Virus record (IMG/VR): IMGVR_UViG_3300032216_001883 | Coordinates: 1-36,184 of that record | Length of the DNA stretch: 36,184 nt | Reading direction: 5' to 3' (one strand) | Source of the DNA: a virus | Lineage: Duplodnaviria > Caudoviricetes | Shown: piece by piece, positions 3,218-13,215 of the stretch | Layout: the number at the start of each line of letters is the position of its first letter | How positions within the stretch are numbered: position 1 is the stretch's first letter | Made by a program: the position numbers and the translations under genes | The notes under the pieces: model-generated | Databases searched by the model: none | The model's input: the letters and a program-made list of their open reading frames with translations, nothing else | What the model was told of the DNA's origin: nothing

Positions 3218-4555
3218 TTAGAAAACTTTATAATCTTCAAATGTCATTGTTTCAGGTAAGAATCTCAAAGCTAGATTTTTTGTGGCTCCGTGTCTATTCT
3301 TCTCCACCTTACAAACCACTAAATCACTTGGAGCATATTCCTTGCCACCAATCTCTACTGATTCAGTTTGTTCGTAGTAGCCTGGTCGCATAAGCATAAT
3401 CACAGCATCAGCATCTTGCTCTATTGATCCTGATTCTCTAAGGTCAGATAATTGAGGCATCTTATCTCCTCGTTCTTCTACCCTCCTAGATAATTGGGAT
3501 AGGGCGATAATAGGTACTTCCAACTCTTTGGCAAGTGCTTTAAGGCTCCTACTAATGTAGGATACCTCTTGCTCTCGGTTTTGGTTTGACTTGCCTGTGC
3601 CACTCATAAGCTGAAGGTAATCGATAAAGATAATCTTTATACCATACTTCTGTTTAAGAATAGTTGCTTTTGACCTTAGTTGGGTTACACTAATACCGCC
3701 CATATCCTCTATGTAGATGGGGGAAGTAAGTATTTTATCATCAGTTCGCAAAAGGTGAACTTTTTCGTTATCTGTCATTAAATTCATTCTAAGACGTTTT
3801 AAGGCTAGTCCTGAGCTTATTGACTCTAACCTTTCAACTAACTGATTGGAGCTCATTTCGAGGCTAAAAATGGCCGTAGCGATGCCTTCTTGAATTGCTA
3901 TCTGATATATACTAGAAAGCATAAAAGCAGTCTTGCCCATTCCAGGCCTAGCAGCTATTATTACAAAGTCAGGCTTAACCCATCCGCATAATGTGTTATT
4001 TAGCTCAATAAAGCCTGTGTTTATGCCTAGTAACTGACCTTCAGTTGCAGCATCTCTACTTTCATTTAGCTGTAAAATAATTTGATCTATAGTCTTTTCG
4101 TATATATTACCAAACTCTTGTAGTCTTAAAAGTTGTTTACCAAAAGTAGATAAAGTATCATCGGTAGATTCAGCACCATCAAAAGCAGCTACTTCCATTA
4201 ATCTGCCCAGGTTAGCTAACTTTCTACGCTTGTATAATTCTATTAGTACCTCTATATGAGTATTTAGGTGAGCAGTTGATACAACGTTGTTAGTTAATTT
4301 AGATAGGTAGTGAGCATTTACTTCTTCAGAATGTTTATTATCTATAAGTCGTTGAAATACAGTACTTAAATCTACTTGTATGTTCTTATCATACATCTGC
4401 TTAATAGTTCTGAATATTAATTGATGACGTAGATCGTAGAAGATTTCTTCAGTAAGATAGTTCACTACAAAAGGCAAAGCTTTTTTATCTAGTAGTATTG
4501 AGCCTAGTATATTCTCTTCTATCTCTAGGTTTTTAGGTAGGTTTATAACATCCAT
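3218..4555 (-). CDS. dnaB: Replicative DNA helicase DnaB
   Basis: AARPGMGKT Walker A, FSLEMS, IDYLQL, LSQLSR, SDLRESGSIEQDAD, KNRHG. Confidence 0.97.
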   Translation of the reverse strand: MDVINLPKNLEIEENILGSILLDKKALPFVVNYLTEEIFYDLRHQLIFRTIKQMYDKNIQVDLSTVFQRLIDNKHSEEVNAHYLSKLTNNVVSTAHLNTHIEVLIELYKRRKLANLGRLMEVAAFDGAESTDDTLSTFGKQLLRLQEFGNIYEKTIDQIILQLNESRDAATEGQLLGINTGFIELNNTLCGWVKPDFVIIAARPGMGKTAFMLSSIYQIAIQEGIATAIFSLEMSSNQLVERLESISSGLALKRLRMNLMTDNEKVHLLRTDDKILTSPIYIEDMGGISVTQLRSKATILKQKYGIKIIFIDYLQLMSGTGKSNQNREQEVSYISRSLKALAKELEVPIIALSQLSRRVEERGDKMPQLSDLRESGSIEQDADAVIMLMRPGYYEQTESVEIGGKEYAPSDLVVCKVEKNRHGATKNLALRFLPETMTFEDYKVF

Positions 4556-5172
4556 TATTTAAGCTTTATTTTAGTTTGTGTGTTAGGTTCAAAGTTTTTG
4601 CTATTCTTAATCCAAGTTCCTACTCTTCTGCCAATATCAAAGAATTTTTGATCTTGGTATCTCATCTTGCCTTTTGTATCTGCTTCAGTCCAGTAGTCTA
4701 AAAAAGATTGGTATTGGTTACCAAGTTTATCTTTATGTGTTTCTAGCCTATTGATAAAAGAATCCTTATCGTTATATATCTTATTAGGTATTATATCTTT
4801 GTTATTAATAACTATATTATTATGTGCCAGTTTTCTGGCTGAGGGGTTAGCCAGTTTTTCGGCTGAGGTAGTAGTTTTTTCTGGCCTAGGTATCTCTATA
4901 TTAATTACCAATGATCTGTACTCAAAATCACCATTTTCTTTTAACTTTATTATCCTTCCTAGGATTGTCATATCCTCTAGTTTTTTAAGGTGATCTTTAA
5001 TCGTAGATTCTGAACAATCAAGACAATCTCCTAAATACTTGTTAGATGCAAAACAATAACCTCTCTCATTGCTTAGATTAGATATTAAAGCTATTAATAA
5101 CTTTTGTTTATCTGTAAGTTCCTTGCTTAATAAAACCTTTGCAGGTAAAACTGCATACCAATTATGATTCAT
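4555..5172 (-). CDS. Replication initiator, N-terminal winged HTH (lambda O/DnaD-like)
   Basis: GYCFASNKYL...SESTI...L..LE HTH pattern, directly upstream of dnaB, contains iterons. Confidence 0.8.
   Translation of the reverse strand: MNHNWYAVLPAKVLLSKELTDKQKLLIALISNLSNERGYCFASNKYLGDCLDCSESTIKDHLKKLEDMTILGRIIKLKENGDFEYRSLVINIEIPRPEKTTTSAEKLANPSARKLAHNNIVINNKDIIPNKIYNDKDSFINRLETHKDKLGNQYQSFLDYWTEADTKGKMRYQDQKFFDIGRRVGTWIKNSKNFEPNTQTKIKLK
4770..4890. other. Putative replication origin: iterons plus AT-rich tract inside the initiator gene
   Basis: GCCAGTTTTYYGGCTGAGG at 4826 and 4850 (24-bp period), a degenerate third copy at 4871, and an AT-rich stretch at 4770-4825. Confidence 0.65.
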
Positions 5173-5899: not shown

Positions 5900-6367
5900 T
5901 TATTTCTTTAATGATATTTTAAATGTTGTAGTAGATACTCTAGGAGCTGGATGTACCATCTCGCCAGTTTCAGGATCAACTACAGCAGAAGTAATACTTC
6001 TAAGCATCTTCTCTCTTTCTTTTAATGCATACTTTAAAGACTCAACTTCGTTATTAAGTTTAGTCCAAGCATAGTCCTGGTCATAGATGTACTTAATACC
6101 TGATTCAATCTTAGTAACCTCGCTACCTAACACATCAGCTTTGCCTAATGGATATTTTGCTAGTTCGTCTACAACTATATCTCTAAGTTCACCACGAACC
6201 CCTTCAAATAATTGAGCAATGGCATCCATACGTACTAATGTTTCTAGTGGAGACTCGCCTGTTTCCTTAAAATGTTCTACAATCGTTGTCTTAATAAGTT
6301 CATTATTAAACTTACTAGGCTCATAGGTGGATAGTTCTACTTTCGGTAAAAATATTTCTGCACTCAT
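5900..6367 (-). CDS. Hypothetical helical protein coupled to the annealase
   Basis: 155 aa, coiled coil, VDPETGE motif, TAATG coupling. Confidence 0.7.
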   Translation of the reverse strand: MSAEIFLPKVELSTYEPSKFNNELIKTTIVEHFKETGESPLETLVRMDAIAQLFEGVRGELRDIVVDELAKYPLGKADVLGSEVTKIESGIKYIYDQDYAWTKLNNEVESLKYALKEREKMLRSITSAVVDPETGEMVHPAPRVSTTTFKISLKK

Positions 6368-7068
6368 TATTTTTTTGTTTTAATTGTGAATGATTCTTTC
6401 TTTGATTTCAGCAACATAAGTAACGCTTGGTCACCATCGATGTATTGCTTATATCCATAATATAAATCTACTAGCTCCTTATTTTTAGTACACGCTGTAA
6501 TGTCCTTAATCAACTGAGTCCTATCAATTTCTTCTGCTACCTCTTCTGCAGCTAACTCAATAATCTTAGCCTTAGTATCAGTTTGTGGTGAGGTTTTTTG
6601 ATCTGTCTTAGAATGGTCAAAATCCATTTCTTCAGCAGGTGTAGCCTCGAATCCAGCAGCTTTCATCAGCCAAGCAAGTAAGTTCCTATAAGCCTTGCCA
6701 ATCGCCCTTGTTTGTGCCATACTAAGAATAGCATATTCGTCAAAGTATCTCTTAGTTTTTTCGGCATTCGTGCATAAGGCAATACCTGTAGCAACGAGCT
6801 GACCTGTATTAATATTGCGAACCTCACAAGTCGCCATATATTTAATAGTAGTTTCATTGGACAAATCTTTTGTATCTGTGATAATTGGCATTAATCCTAG
6901 TGAAGCTCCAGCGAACTGCCATCCTTCCACATTAACGAATTGCTTGCCTTGAATGTTTGAGCTTAATCCTTTCTCTTTGATAAGCTTAGATAGTTCTGAT
7001 GCTAATTGTAACATTGAGTCTTTGTTAATGAGACTGTACGAAGGGCTAGTTGTTTGTAACTGATCCAT
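6367..7068 (-). CDS. Single-strand annealing recombinase (Rad52/Sak-like)
   Basis: IQGKQFVNVEGW...ATG.A.C...E...SMAQTRAIGKA...ATPAEEM. Confidence 0.65.
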   Translation of the reverse strand: MDQLQTTSPSYSLINKDSMLQLASELSKLIKEKGLSSNIQGKQFVNVEGWQFAGASLGLMPIITDTKDLSNETTIKYMATCEVRNINTGQLVATGIALCTNAEKTKRYFDEYAILSMAQTRAIGKAYRNLLAWLMKAAGFEATPAEEMDFDHSKTDQKTSPQTDTKAKIIELAAEEVAEEIDRTQLIKDITACTKNKELVDLYYGYKQYIDGDQALLMLLKSKKESFTIKTKK

Positions 7069-7252
7069 AATTTAGGTTTTTTGTTTGTGTTTCTGTGAAA
7101 TAATAAGCTTCTCTAGTTGAATACTTTTGCCATATAGACAAGATAGATTCCATTAGTTCAAGATTAGCTTGTGAATAGTTGATTTGATGGATAATCTTAG
7201 CGACAAATAATCGCTTTTCTGAATCATCCCAAGATGCGAATTGACTTAGCAT
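7046..7252 (-). CDS. Hypothetical protein
   Basis: 68-aa ORF overlapping its neighbours in the operon. Confidence 0.6.
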   Translation of the reverse strand: MLSQFASWDDSEKRLFVAKIIHQINYSQANLELMESILSIWQKYSTREAYYFTETQTKNLNYGSVTNN

Positions 7253-7619
7253 AGTTTAGGTGTTTTTTGGTTGGTAAATTAAGTTTAAGTAAGAATCTTA
7301 TTTCTTCAAATTGCTCTGCATAGACATCGTTGTTCTTCATATCTTGTTTGTGCATACGAAGTCCGTGGAGTACAGTTGTATGGTCACGAAAAAATAACCT
7401 GCCTATTGAGGCTACTGTAGAGCCTACGTAGGTTTTTAGAATGGCATAGCACATATTCCTTGTAAGCACATAGATGCGTGATCTATCTTTAGATAGTACA
7501 TCTTTGTATCTCACATCCATTTCCTTACAAATAAATTGTATTATCTCCTCTCTGTCTAATTGTTGCTCAATAAATATTCCAGGCATAGTGTAGTAGTTTA
7601 GTTTATTCAGCGTAGTCAT
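7224..7619 (-). CDS. Stand-alone DnaA C-terminal (domain IV) DNA-binding protein
   Basis: DVLSKDRSR....R..C......IGRLF.RDHTTVLHG is the DnaA domain IV signature. Confidence 0.85.
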   Translation of the reverse strand: MTTLNKLNYYTMPGIFIEQQLDREEIIQFICKEMDVRYKDVLSKDRSRIYVLTRNMCYAILKTYVGSTVASIGRLFFRDHTTVLHGLRMHKQDMKNNDVYAEQFEEIRFLLKLNLPTKKHLNYAKSIRILG

Positions 7620-10632: not shown

Positions 10633-10680
10633 TTATATAATATAGGTTATATTATATATTATATAATATAGGTTATATTA
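10633..10680. repeat. 22-bp direct repeat (x2), each copy containing TAATATA-GGT-TATATTA
   Basis: TTATATAATATAGGTTATATTA at 10633 and 10659. Confidence 0.8.
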
Positions 10681-10830
10681 CCTACTATATGTAAGTATAG
10701 TAAAGTAAATTGAATAGAAGTATTAAAGCTTAATTGTTAATTGGCGCAAAGGACTGCGTAAACAATCAATATAATAAAACTACATTAGTTTTGCATTGGA
10801 TAGGCAAAAGAATAAGAGGGTAGGGGAGGC

Positions 10831-10858
10831 ACTTAACATAATATAGATTATAAGAGTA
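10831..10858 (-). other. dif: dif-like XerC/XerD recombination site
   Basis: Minus strand TACTCTTATAA-TCTATA-TTATGTTAAGT versus E. coli dif GGTGCGCATAA-TGTATA-TTATGTTAAAT. XerD arm 10/11, spacer 5/6, inner ATAA of the XerC arm conserved. Confidence 0.75.
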
Positions 10859-11018
10859 AAATTGATCCGCTGGGCCTACCCCCTACCACTTTTTTTAGCG
10901 TAGAAATAAGGAGGAGTGCTTTGTGCCCTCCATTATTCTGATATAAAACAAAGACTTAACGATGTTTGACATTTGATTTTTTTTATTTTCCATATAACCC
11001 ATTACAATTAAATGTAAT

Positions 11019-11213
11019 ATGAAAGACACCGTACAAAAGAGAATATATAAGTGCAAATGTGGTACTTTGATAGAAGACTATGTTTGGTCAAGTTCCATTA
11101 ACGAACATACCATCAACTGCAGCAAGTGCAACAAATCGATTACCTACGATAATCTAGTCGTAAATAAAGTTGCTCAGTCAGCAGCCATTAGAACACCAAC
11201 TAAAAACCGATAA
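11019..11213 (+). CDS. Small zinc-ribbon protein
   Basis: YKCKCG...CSKC. Confidence 0.65.
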   Translation: MKDTVQKRIYKCKCGTLIEDYVWSSSINEHTINCSKCNKSITYDNLVVNKVAQSAAIRTPTKNR

Positions 11214-11214
11214 T

Positions 11215-11733
11215 ATGAACGCAGAATTCAGAGATATAACAAAAGAAGCTTTTATCATAGCTTACAAGGAGAACTTTGGTAATATAACCATCTCCTGTGA
11301 ATCAGCAGGGGTTTCTAGGGCCTCGTATAACGTATGGATTAAATCTGATCCTGAGTTTGCTAAGAAACTTGCTGAAATAGAGCCAGAAGAGATAATGCTT
11401 GACTTCGGTGAGCACAAACTGATGGAAAGGATTGCTAAAGGTGATACGTTAGCTACAATGTTCCTATTGAAGACTAAGGGCAAAAGAAGAGGTTACATCG
11501 AAAGACAAGAGGTTGCTCACGAAGGAGATGTGGTAAAACAAATTACTGTTAACGTACTAAAAGCTAACCACGTGGATGATATTAAGAAGTTAGATGGTGA
11601 TGAACATTTGCAAATAGAAGATAATGGTATGGTAGTTCCTGCTACTGAAGCTGGACACATACAAGATATTCCAGTTTATCAGTACGATAAAGAGGTAGAT
11701 GTACCAAATGAGATGGATGAATATGAGGAATAG
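11215..11733 (+). CDS. terS: Putative terminase small subunit (HTH)
   Basis: GNITISCESAGVSRASYNVW..DPEF HTH and FLLKTKGKRRGY, upstream of terL. Likely ATG at 11215. Confidence 0.75.
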   Translation: MNAEFRDITKEAFIIAYKENFGNITISCESAGVSRASYNVWIKSDPEFAKKLAEIEPEEIMLDFGEHKLMERIAKGDTLATMFLLKTKGKRRGYIERQEVAHEGDVVKQITVNVLKANHVDDIKKLDGDEHLQIEDNGMVVPATEAGHIQDIPVYQYDKEVDVPNEMDEYEE

Positions 11734-11840
11734 TGTTATTTAGCATTTTAAGACTAATACAGACACTTTAATTATAAAGTAGTACTATGTATTCAAAATG
11801 ACATAGAGTGTCTTAAATCGCTTCTAATTGATTTTTAGGT

Positions 11841-12008
11841 ATGTTACCAATTTGGTTACATTGTTATAAAGTAAAGGTATAATTTGACTTATGTTGTAAC
11901 AAAGTAAGTCAATAACTTGACTTTTTGACTTATATCAATCATAAAAGTTACCCAATAAGGCAACTTTGAGCCGATAATGATTGATAAACGACTCATTAAT
12001 GATTGATG
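11841..12008. repeat. Array of abutting, mutually different imperfect palindromes (right array) between terS and terL
   Basis: For example ATGTTACCAA-T-TTGGTTACAT, AAGTCAA-TAAC-TTGACTT, AAAGTTACC-N6-GGCAACTTT, TGAGCCG-N15-CGACTCA. Confidence 0.75.
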
Positions 12009-12078
12009 CCCCTACCTTCCTATAAAACCAAAAGGTTTAGCTTTGTCTTGAGCAAACCAAAAATTTTAATTTATTTCT

Positions 12079-13215
12079 ATGGAAGTAACCACCAATGTCG
12101 TCTTTGAGGTACTGAATAACTCTAAGAAAAGGATTTCTGTGATGCAAGGGGGTACAAGGTCAGGAAAGACTTACAATGTGCTTACTTGGTTTATAGTAAA
12201 ATTACTTCAGGAGAAAGGCAAGACATTAACCATTTGCCGTTCATCCTTACCGAGCATTAAAGGCTCCGTAATGAGAGATTTTATTGAGATATTGTCCAAA
12301 TATGGGCTATATTCAGAGGAAAAACACAATAAATCAGAGAATTTATACTTCCTAAATGGCAATACTGTAGAATTTGTATCTACCGACCAACCTCAAAAGA
12401 TTAGAGGTCGTAAAAGGCATTATTTGTTTATTAACGAGGCAAATGAGGTTAATTATGAATCTTGGATGCAATTAGCCCTAAGAACTACGGATAAAATCGT
12501 AATTGACTATAACCCTTCCGATTATTACTCCTGGATTTATGATAAGGTCATCCCTAGAGAGGATACTGACTTTACAATTACTACTTACAAAGACAATCCA
12601 TTTTTAGATAAAAATATTATTGCGGAGATTGAGAGGCTTAAAGAAGCTGACCACGAATATTGGAGGGTATACGGATTAGGCGAAAGAGCAATTTCAGAAG
12701 CTACGATTTATTCACATTGGAGAAGAAGAAGAAACTTTCCTGAAGGGGGAGAGATTTTTTATGGCCTTGACTTTGGCTATAACAATCAAACAGCTTTAGT
12801 AAGATGTAAAAACTTTGATGGCGATATTTACGTAGAACAATTAATCTATGACACAAAGATGTCAACATCACTTTTAATAGATCGTCTTAAATCGATGGGG
12901 CTTTCTCGTAGAGATGAAATATTTGCGGATGCTGCGGAACCAAAAACAATAGCAGAAGTCAATAAAGCAGGGTTTAATTTAAAATCAGCTACTAAAGATG
13001 TATTTGCAGGAATTAATAAAGTAAAATCTTTCCCATTATTTGTTAAATCAGAATCTTTAGACTTATTAGATGAAATTAAAAACTACAAATGGAAAACAGA
13101 TCATGATGGTAATATAATGGATGAACCTGTTAAGTTTAGAGATCATTTAATGGATGCTATGAGGTATGCTATTTATACTAAATATGCAAAACAGAAGCGT
13201 GGTTGGATTGTTTAG
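12079..13215 (+). CDS. terL: Terminase large subunit (PBSX/SPP1-like)
   Basis: QGGTRSGKT Walker A, FINEANE Walker B, DYNP, GLDFG, DHLMDAMRY. Confidence 0.95.
   Translation: MEVTTNVVFEVLNNSKKRISVMQGGTRSGKTYNVLTWFIVKLLQEKGKTLTICRSSLPSIKGSVMRDFIEILSKYGLYSEEKHNKSENLYFLNGNTVEFVSTDQPQKIRGRKRHYLFINEANEVNYESWMQLALRTTDKIVIDYNPSDYYSWIYDKVIPREDTDFTITTYKDNPFLDKNIIAEIERLKEADHEYWRVYGLGERAISEATIYSHWRRRRNFPEGGEIFYGLDFGYNNQTALVRCKNFDGDIYVEQLIYDTKMSTSLLIDRLKSMGLSRRDEIFADAAEPKTIAEVNKAGFNLKSATKDVFAGINKVKSFPLFVKSESLDLLDEIKNYKWKTDHDGNIMDEPVKFRDHLMDAMRYAIYTKYAKQKRGWIV

Follow-up and report, generated by a model that had tools for sequence, protein, structure and literature searches.

A Bacteroidota-type dif look-alike with an adjacent KOPS-type word upstream of the terminase genes of an integrase-less tailed phage

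The 36,184-nt window (the whole stretch of DNA that was analyzed) is the circular, siphovirus-like genome of a freshwater phage, and it carries upstream of its terminase genes a 28-bp site that we confirmed to be a look-alike of Bacteroidota-type dif and that is predicted, from its sequence, to be a target of XerCD. We consider it probable (about 0.7) that the host XerCD recombines the phage DNA with itself at this site. This reading is favored by the free spacer between fixed arms, by the intact XerD arm and by the lack of any prophage among our searches. Indeed, fixed arms with a free spacer are what a site meeting only its own copy would require. The features that we discuss are the following:

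3218-5172, minus strand: replication initiator (HTH) and DnaB helicase (PF13730, PF03796, phrog_428, phrog_19)
6367-7068, minus strand: candidate single-strand annealing protein (Sak/Erf/RecT-like), from BFVD structure matches
10760-10785, plus strand: left flanking block of a swappable cassette, seen in relatives with and without the site
10817-10828, plus strand: KOPS-like cluster facing the XerD arm, GGGTAGGG overlapping AGGGTAG, GTAGGGG and AGGGGAG
10831-10841, minus strand: XerD-type arm (TTATGTTAAGT)
10842-10847, minus strand: 6-bp central region, TCTATA
10848-10858, minus strand: XerC-type arm (TACTCTTATAA)
10874-10888, minus strand: terS-side G-rich motif
10923-10942, plus strand: right flanking block, conserved in relatives with and without the site
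11019-11213, plus strand: putative zinc-binding ORF of 64 aa, located between the site and terS (sub-threshold match to NF047912, E = 7e-4)
11215-11733, plus strand: terminase small subunit, terS (phrog_4044, E = 2.4e-6), extendable to a TTG at 11170
12079-13215, plus strand: PBSX-family terminase large subunit, terL (TIGR01547 above cut-off; PF04466)

The sequence and coordinates given in the initial annotation (10858-10831, minus strand) are correct for the site, which presents an 11-6-11 core with partial dyad symmetry. One base separates its XerD-type arm from that predicted in Chitinophaga pinensis and others, and this arm is kept in relatives. The inner part of the XerC-type arm is conserved and its outer four bases are variable, with the column counts at positions 8-11 of this arm being fixed by the search pattern. 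The central region differs by a single base, in its XerC-side half, from TTTATA, the commonest spacer of Bacteroidetes dif (9 of the 19 predicted-dif rows in the supplement of PMC3025954, in part). Across the whole site, 23 of the 28 bases are equal to the dif predicted for C. pinensis in a by-eye comparison (PMC3025954, in part). The exact core ATAA-N6-TTATGTTAART was recovered in 0 of 500 shuffles of the whole window and in 1 of 5000 shuffles of the intergenic gap. The site is also non-coding, present in a single copy and conserved above background, as expected of a dif-type sequence, and its anatomy and conservation fit the XerCD target that had been suggested. The distance to terS, given earlier as ~360 bp, is 356 bp to the ATG at 11215, but the intervening 64-aa ORF, which is missing from part of the clade, had gone unmentioned. 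Contrary to a chromosomal dif, the site is not surrounded by converging polarity across the replicon and the genome contains one KOPS. The genome-scale G skew points away from the site, so that the local KOPS-type words oppose the background.

Other dif-like sequences were seen in the vicinity. Two tandem 26-nt AT-rich repeats lie at 10633-10684, and their 15-nt core matches the site itself at 10838-10852; these repeats are candidates for degenerate site copies, an origin or a packaging signal. In the 345-bp gap between terS and terL (11734-12078), a 28-mer with a weak likeness to dif occupies 11872-11899, and GGTAGGGG occurs on the minus strand at about 12009-12016. The site of the sister clade described below sits in the counterpart of this gap.

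The octamer GGGTAGGG is found at 10818-10825 on the plus strand, 5 bp from the XerD arm and pointing at it, as first described, and it is the sole GGGNAGGG of the window. Chance alone would place about one GGGNAGGG in a 36-kb sequence (mean 1.25; present in 72 of 100 shuffles), and only the position of the octamer is therefore informative. Among phage sites, the GGGNAGGG words within 100 bp on the XerD side point 90 times towards the site and 0 times away, against 5 and 3 on the XerC side. All 18 plus-oriented sites and 30 of the 87 minus-oriented sites have the word on their XerD side, the exact XerD-side KOPS being missing in the other 57. Since it occurs on the XerD side in both orientations of the site, the octamer tracks the XerD arm rather than terS. 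This behavior when the site flips, together with the 90:0 polarity, agrees with the proposed reading of the octamer as a KOPS.

To define polarity at chromosomal dif, we used metagenome dif loci with a TTTATA spacer: 120 of about 400 loci were taken, from which 3 phage and 11 duplicate loci were removed, leaving 106 loci and 620 kb. In this set, GGGNAGGG points 61 times towards dif and 9 times away (30 loci vs 3). The phage cluster at 10817-10828 overlaps four of the most skewed words of these loci, GGGTAGGG, AGGGTAG, GTAGGGG and AGGGGAG (respectively, 27:1, 59:10, 35:2 and 81:3 towards dif). AGGGGAG is the most polarized 7-mer of all (37 loci vs 1), and GGGNAGGG comes tenth in the ranking of degenerate octamers. 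Skew is a common property of G-rich words; of those with the composition of GGGNAGGG, several are as skewed and some hardly so (13:12). The chromosomal KOPS consensus is thus broad, yet it is not a matter of G content alone. That these loci are chromosomal is shown by gyrA, found no further than 10 kb from dif in 9 of the 31 long ones, and 2 of 10 proteins looked up from dif loci were named Bacteroidota or Bacteroidales, the others carrying no taxon. This KOPS polarity rests on metagenome dif loci, whose source may differ from the true host of the phage. The doubt first raised over GGGNAGGG as a KOPS in Bacteroidota is largely answered by inference, through the 61:9 ratio at loci with a Bacteroidota-type spacer, and is left standing in part by the taxon names (2 of 10). 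We did not find any paper in a literature search on KOPS with Bacteroidetes, and the accessible text of PMC3384302 and PMC13342612 does not give a KOPS motif for Bacteroidota. Judged by sequence polarity, GGGNAGGG and the more skewed AGGGGAG could represent the first candidate KOPS of this phylum.

We further analyzed the distribution of the site in related phages, a check that the initial annotation had called for. The close clade (terL 94-98% identical) was represented by the best 80 of 314 loci, 44 of which had at least 1 kb upstream of terS. A strict site was detected in 41 of these 44 loci, 153-773 bp upstream of terS and with nine different spacers; 27 sites are oriented as in the window and 14 are inverted. 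No match to the site was found in 295 kb downstream of terL in the same clade. For the sister clade (terL about 60% identical to that of the window; the best 80 of 225 loci), in which terS was recognized by eye from its N-terminal motif, the site was found in 69 of the 72 loci with enough DNA (58 strict), with 0 matches in 283 kb of control sequence, and 50 of the 51 distinct strict sites lie after terS. A third subclade (terL 84-87%) presented the site in all seven loci with enough upstream DNA. In 53 loci at greater distance (terL 42-63%), from a sample of 80 of about 7400, one strict site was found. The site is absent from 3 of the 44 close relatives and, given its rarity in these distant loci, is dispensable.

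After pooling, 110 distinct sites contain 32 spacers. The arm invariance in this table is partly set by the search pattern; the presence, position and spacer variety are not. Nine of the spacers are TTTATA; 16 sites share with it the XerC-side half, 39 share the XerD-side half ATA and 64 share neither. The spacer of the window, TCTATA, agrees with TTTATA in the XerD-side half but not in the other. A chromosomal core was found to be identical to one of the phage cores.

The close clade contains cassettes of two types. TTACCA is the spacer in 23 of its 61 distinct sites, and 21 of these present an IHF-consensus box (WATCAR-N4-TTR) exactly 13 bp outside the XerC arm; of the other two, one is truncated and one is degenerate. 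None of the 23 has a XerD-side KOPS within 100 bp. The other 38 sites show a XerD-side KOPS in 28 cases and an IHF box in one (Fisher P = 4e-13 and 3e-9 for the associations, values inflated by kinship). At chromosomal loci, a XerC-side IHF-consensus box is found in 3 of 110. Placed on the terL tree, the two types are intermingled (18 changes among 43 rows), which indicates that cassette types are exchanged among close relatives, and no gene tracked the type in the 17-18 partial genomes inspected. The window belongs to the KOPS type and has no IHF-consensus box between 10100 and 12100. In the sister clade, IHF boxes are mostly on the XerD side (11 of 51 sites, 9 of them with a KOPS) and 27 of 51 sites have neither element, indicating that the split into two types, and the analogy with plasmids considered below, are not general. 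A likeness of the TTACCA spacer to the central region of psi was not confirmed in the accessible text of PMC11724359 and bioRxiv 10.64898/2026.02.23.706985.

The surroundings of the site also appear to be mosaic. In the three site-less close relatives (L003, L020 and L057), both flanking blocks are kept around a different middle, which indicates that the site sits within a swappable cassette and is dispensable. In two of these three loci, the cassette is replaced by GTAG-rich repeats, which are unpolarized in chromosomal loci. All four pairings of two left and two right flanks were seen around one spacer (L002, L013, L024 and L075), as would result from crossover at or beside the site. On the terS side, two near-KOPS words had been reported to point at the site. 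Both are present on the minus strand where they had been placed (TGGTAGGG, 10888-10881; GGGTAGGC, 10881-10874), but their role as KOPS found no support: neither is significantly polarized at chromosomal dif (respectively, 10:4, P = 0.18, and 3:4) and the motif that contains them survives without the site. This G-rich motif is present in 39 of the 49 close loci with a site, and the exact motif or a one-base variant is present in 3 of 3 site-less loci. It contains GGTAGGG and GTAGGGG and may, on these words, have a weak role in FtsK loading. We infer that it is a separate conserved element and a candidate packaging or promoter signal.

Sites of this kind are not restricted to this lineage. Of the 120 loci (about 410 estimated) covered by an exact-pattern scan of viral contigs, 80 had flanking sequence; they comprise 34 members of this lineage and, outside it, 10 sites within ORFs and 36 in non-coding DNA. 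For thirty of these 36, the neighboring genes were annotated. Four sites lie 23-144 bp after terS and two lie within about 800 bp of terS or terL; the remaining loci comprise a microvirus, an inovirus, an ICE-like element and unexplained cases. In other viral groups (L088, L115, L134; L093, L116, L151; L094), non-coding dif-like sites lie near groEL, RusA-like or exonuclease genes instead of terminase. Unannotated intergenic dif-like 28-mers also occur in cultured phages: Escherichia phage Seurat (KM236243, ~49.3 kb), Rheinheimera phage Barba21A (NC_048191, ~30.5 kb), Pseudoalteromonas phage H101 (~60.7 kb) and Salmonella phage SalP219 (647-674). The spacer of Barba21A is that of the window. 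No exact KOPS was found within 150 bp of these four look-alikes. The site of Seurat lies about 7.5 kb before terS, with an IHF-consensus box 3 bp beyond its XerD arm, and is unmentioned in the genome announcement. The cultured phages nearest by terL (FpV9, BU2-2 and PM116P4; 35-36%) have no site, nor does the left terminal repeat of T5 at two mismatches; the T5 preprint mentions neither Xer nor KOPS.

Besides the PBSX-family terL, the HTH initiator and DnaB, the window encodes a head module of the HK97 type. The ends of the record fall within a metallophosphoesterase gene at which the circle was opened, and the two end pieces of this gene match residues 1-118 and 120-235 of the 236-aa protein of a relative; the junction (36184/1) is one base short at the junction codon, and the source contig exceeds the window by 31 bases. 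The family of terL suggests headful packaging, and the initiator and DnaB suggest replication from a circular template. No recombinase gene had been recognized at first, and all searches agree: a six-frame search (E ≤ 1) of the window detected neither a tyrosine (PF00589) nor a serine (PF00239) recombinase, and searches against Pfam (57 ORFs) and PHROGs (56 ORFs) yielded no integrase. PF00589 was likewise absent from 50 of 50 relatives, only 3 of which are at least 90% complete. The same databases gave no match to FtsK-gamma or a Xer activator among the window ORFs and no partition gene among the annotated ORFs. No close plasmid relative was found, the best being at 33%.

The ORF at 6367-7068 is an unannotated core gene with more than 3000 relatives. 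Its named BFVD matches are mostly Sak3, Erf, RecT and Bet (best named E = 5e-4; model pLDDT 53), the Atlas leads score 0.84-0.90, and Pfam and PDB sequence searches returned no match; a single-sequence fold was discarded (pLDDT 39). The low-confidence model suggests that it is likely an annealing protein of the Sak/Erf/RecT type missed by Pfam. Such a protein would likely offer both a second route to circular DNA and a source of multimers. A stand-alone protein with the C-terminal (DNA-binding) domain of DnaA is encoded at 7224-7619 on the minus strand; it is kept in all relatives covering the region, and the sister clade has such a protein upstream of terS as well.

The host is probably a member of Bacteroidota, judging from the best cultured terL matches (Bacteroides, Flavobacterium and Parabacteroides phages; 34-36%), one DnaB relative labelled Bacteroidota and the likeness of the site to predicted Bacteroidetes dif. 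A DnaB search of cultured phages named no host. The lone terL match in GTDB comes from a MAG labelled Bdellovibrio, in which it occupies a 9-kb contig, and was taken as a binning passenger.

A mechanism for recombination of the phage DNA with itself can be proposed. The host XerC and XerD would bind the arms of the phage site, FtsK would load at the adjacent KOPS-type word and activate XerD, and two identical phage sites would exchange strands. If pac lies upstream of the site, DNA of the first headful is predicted to hold the site twice, and the terminally redundant injected DNA would then be closed into a circle. This would parallel phage P1, whose loxP lies in the terminal redundancy and is used by Cre for circularization, except that the enzymes would be borrowed. 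The TTACCA/IHF cassette of about a third of close relatives is probably, by analogy with plasmid sites, an FtsK-independent switch for the same reaction. Closing the injected DNA is the job that we favor for the site, tentatively and at somewhat less than even odds. It is ranked first because it alone among the jobs considered needs a place near the packaging start (pac lies inside terS in P22 and SPP1), and this place recurs in unrelated phages. Several points count against it. The site would be duplicated only in molecules from the first headful. With the site upstream of terS in the close clade, circularization would need a pac further upstream; the terS-side G-rich motif, as a pac candidate, would be on the wrong side if packaging proceeds rightwards. 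The predicted annealing protein weakens the idea further, as it could likely close the DNA without Xer. FtsK acts at the septum of pre-divisional cells (PMC11724359, in part). Control of the cer/psi kind needs supercoiled DNA (bioRxiv 10.64898/2026.02.23.706985, in part), so that sites of the IHF type, if cer/psi-like, could not close a linear molecule. The negative result for the T5 left repeat and the distance between the site and terS in Seurat are also unfavorable. A much broader proposal, which we consider unlikely, is that lytic tailed phages widely outsource circularization to XerCD through a dif mimic at the packaging start, with KOPS/FtsK or an FtsK-free IHF switch on the XerC side, and with spacers diversified against host and rival phages.

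Alternatively, the site could resolve dimers and catenanes of circular phage DNA arising from theta replication and annealing crossovers, which would matter most in a carrier or pseudolysogenic state. All the evidence for recombination of the phage DNA with itself applies equally here, and the window encodes the initiator, DnaB and the likely annealing protein. The two cassette types—mutually exclusive in the close clade and scattered on the terL tree—mirror control by FtsK/KOPS versus XerC-side accessory factors in plasmids (PMC11724359, in part). This two-type pattern is a better fit to multimer resolution than to circularization, but the position is a worse one: the repeated placement beside terS goes unexplained. 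The lack of partition genes among annotated ORFs and the distance of the best plasmid relative (33%) also weigh against it, as do the mostly XerD-side IHF boxes of the sister clade, often with a KOPS, and a single IHF box is not a topological filter of the PepA type. We regard this role as doubtful. The opposite role, in which the site builds multimers (concatemers for headful packaging) or docks FtsK/XerCD to move or hold the phage DNA, would work whichever side pac is on, and FtsK does stop at XerCD-dif (PMC3130261, in part). In plus-oriented loci, flank linkage drops across the site (rho 0.14 vs 0.78 on either side), as exchange between phages would give. However, this drop is based on a handful of events, does not appear in minus-oriented loci (0.49 vs 0.70 and 0.41) and would look no different after homologous crossover in the shared core, and an accessory-type site would not act between molecules (bioRxiv 10.64898/2026.02.23.706985, in part). 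Such a role seems decidedly improbable.

Of the three jobs suggested in the initial annotation, integration is the least favored, while circularization and multimer resolution were not separable. Under the integration hypothesis, the site would be an attP and the phage would integrate at the host dif through XerCD, as IMEXs do. The phage has no integrase, nine of the 110 sites carry the TTTATA host spacer, 39 share its ATA half and one core is shared with a chromosome. In addition, gokushoviruses integrate at dif despite variable spacers (PMC7062461, in part) and VGJphi needs spacer identity on one side only (PMC5357621, in part). Against this, 64 of the 110 sites share neither half with TTTATA, although hosts may have other spacers, and the XerD arm is intact here and divergent in TLCphi and GGI (PMC5357621, in part). 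The 120 metagenome dif loci contained no chromosome-phage junction: three are phages of the clade and the others have no match to the window proteins. None of the listed assembly joints or loose ends, which derive from contigs and not reads, falls at the spacer (10842-10847). Three contigs that end at or in the site (L014, L021 and L056) were rejected as junctions, as assemblies can break at a word of 24-28 bp that is also present in chromosomes. The GTDB match is confined to 9 kb and the longest contigs holding DnaB relatives do not exceed 66 kb. These prophage negatives carry little weight, the host being uncultured, and it is the spacers and the XerD arm as well that lead us to view integration as improbable. 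Finally, the site could be a promoter, an operator or a chance AT-rich palindrome. A sigma-70-like match overlaps it (10833-10862) and the region is one of divergent control, but promoter matches across the region are at chance level (4 vs 4.6). Moreover, the site inverts relative to terS (27 vs 14), moves past it in the sister clade and keeps its asymmetric XerC/XerD pattern, which makes this explanation very improbable.

The phage site can be compared to several known systems. It shares with chromosomal dif, XerC/XerD and FtsK-KOPS the 11-6-11 core and the inward-pointing KOPS, a motif at which FtsK is known to load (PMC3130261, in part); it differs in being carried by a 36-kb phage, in its freely varying spacer and in the lack of genome-wide polarity. 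In the phages, about 5-60 bp separate the KOPS from the XerD arm; in the 106 chromosomal loci, the closest KOPS pointing towards dif are at 113 and 529 bp. Plasmid sites, namely cer/psi and the FtsK-dependent xrs (PMC11724359, in part), likewise use the host XerCD on a mobile replicon under two control modes, and the TTACCA type resembles cer/psi in its extra element on the XerC side. However, cer/psi involve about 200 bp with ArgR/ArcA and PepA (PMC11724359, in part), whereas the TTACCA type presents a single IHF-consensus box at 13 bp, and the window has no such accessory element, which is found only in its TTACCA relatives. This phage further differs from plasmids in that it is a virion-producing tailed phage without partition genes, and both modes alternate at one locus. 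As with IMEXs (CTXphi, VGJphi, TLCphi, GGI and enterogokushoviruses; PMC5357621 and PMC7062461, in part), there is no dedicated integrase and there is a dif-like site. In contrast, the element here is a dsDNA tailed phage with an intact XerD arm—differing from the chromosomal pattern at one base, unlike the divergent arm of the TLCphi/GGI type—an adjacent KOPS, many non-host spacers and no prophage found. P1 is similar in having a single loxP near the packaging genes of a likely headful phage, but the present phage does not encode the recombinase, and a place within the terminal redundancy is a prediction.

Hijacking of Xer is known for integration (filamentous phages, gokushoviruses and islands) and for the resolution of plasmid dimers. 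In open-licence PubMed Central and bioRxiv (outside subscription papers and bioRxiv supplements), we found reports for filamentous, tailless and microviral phages and for plasmids, and none on a dif beside the terminase genes of a tailed phage. Our analysis adds a KOPS that follows the XerD arm, a Bacteroidota-type KOPS polarity, two exchangeable cassettes and a census of spacers. It also supplies a candidate IHF-controlled Xer site. Similar sites in cultured phages of E. coli, Salmonella and Rheinheimera make the idea testable. If the host-dependent recombination step is true, XerCD and FtsK would join the host factors of integrase-less tailed phages, and a dif in a phage should not be read as a sign of lysogeny.
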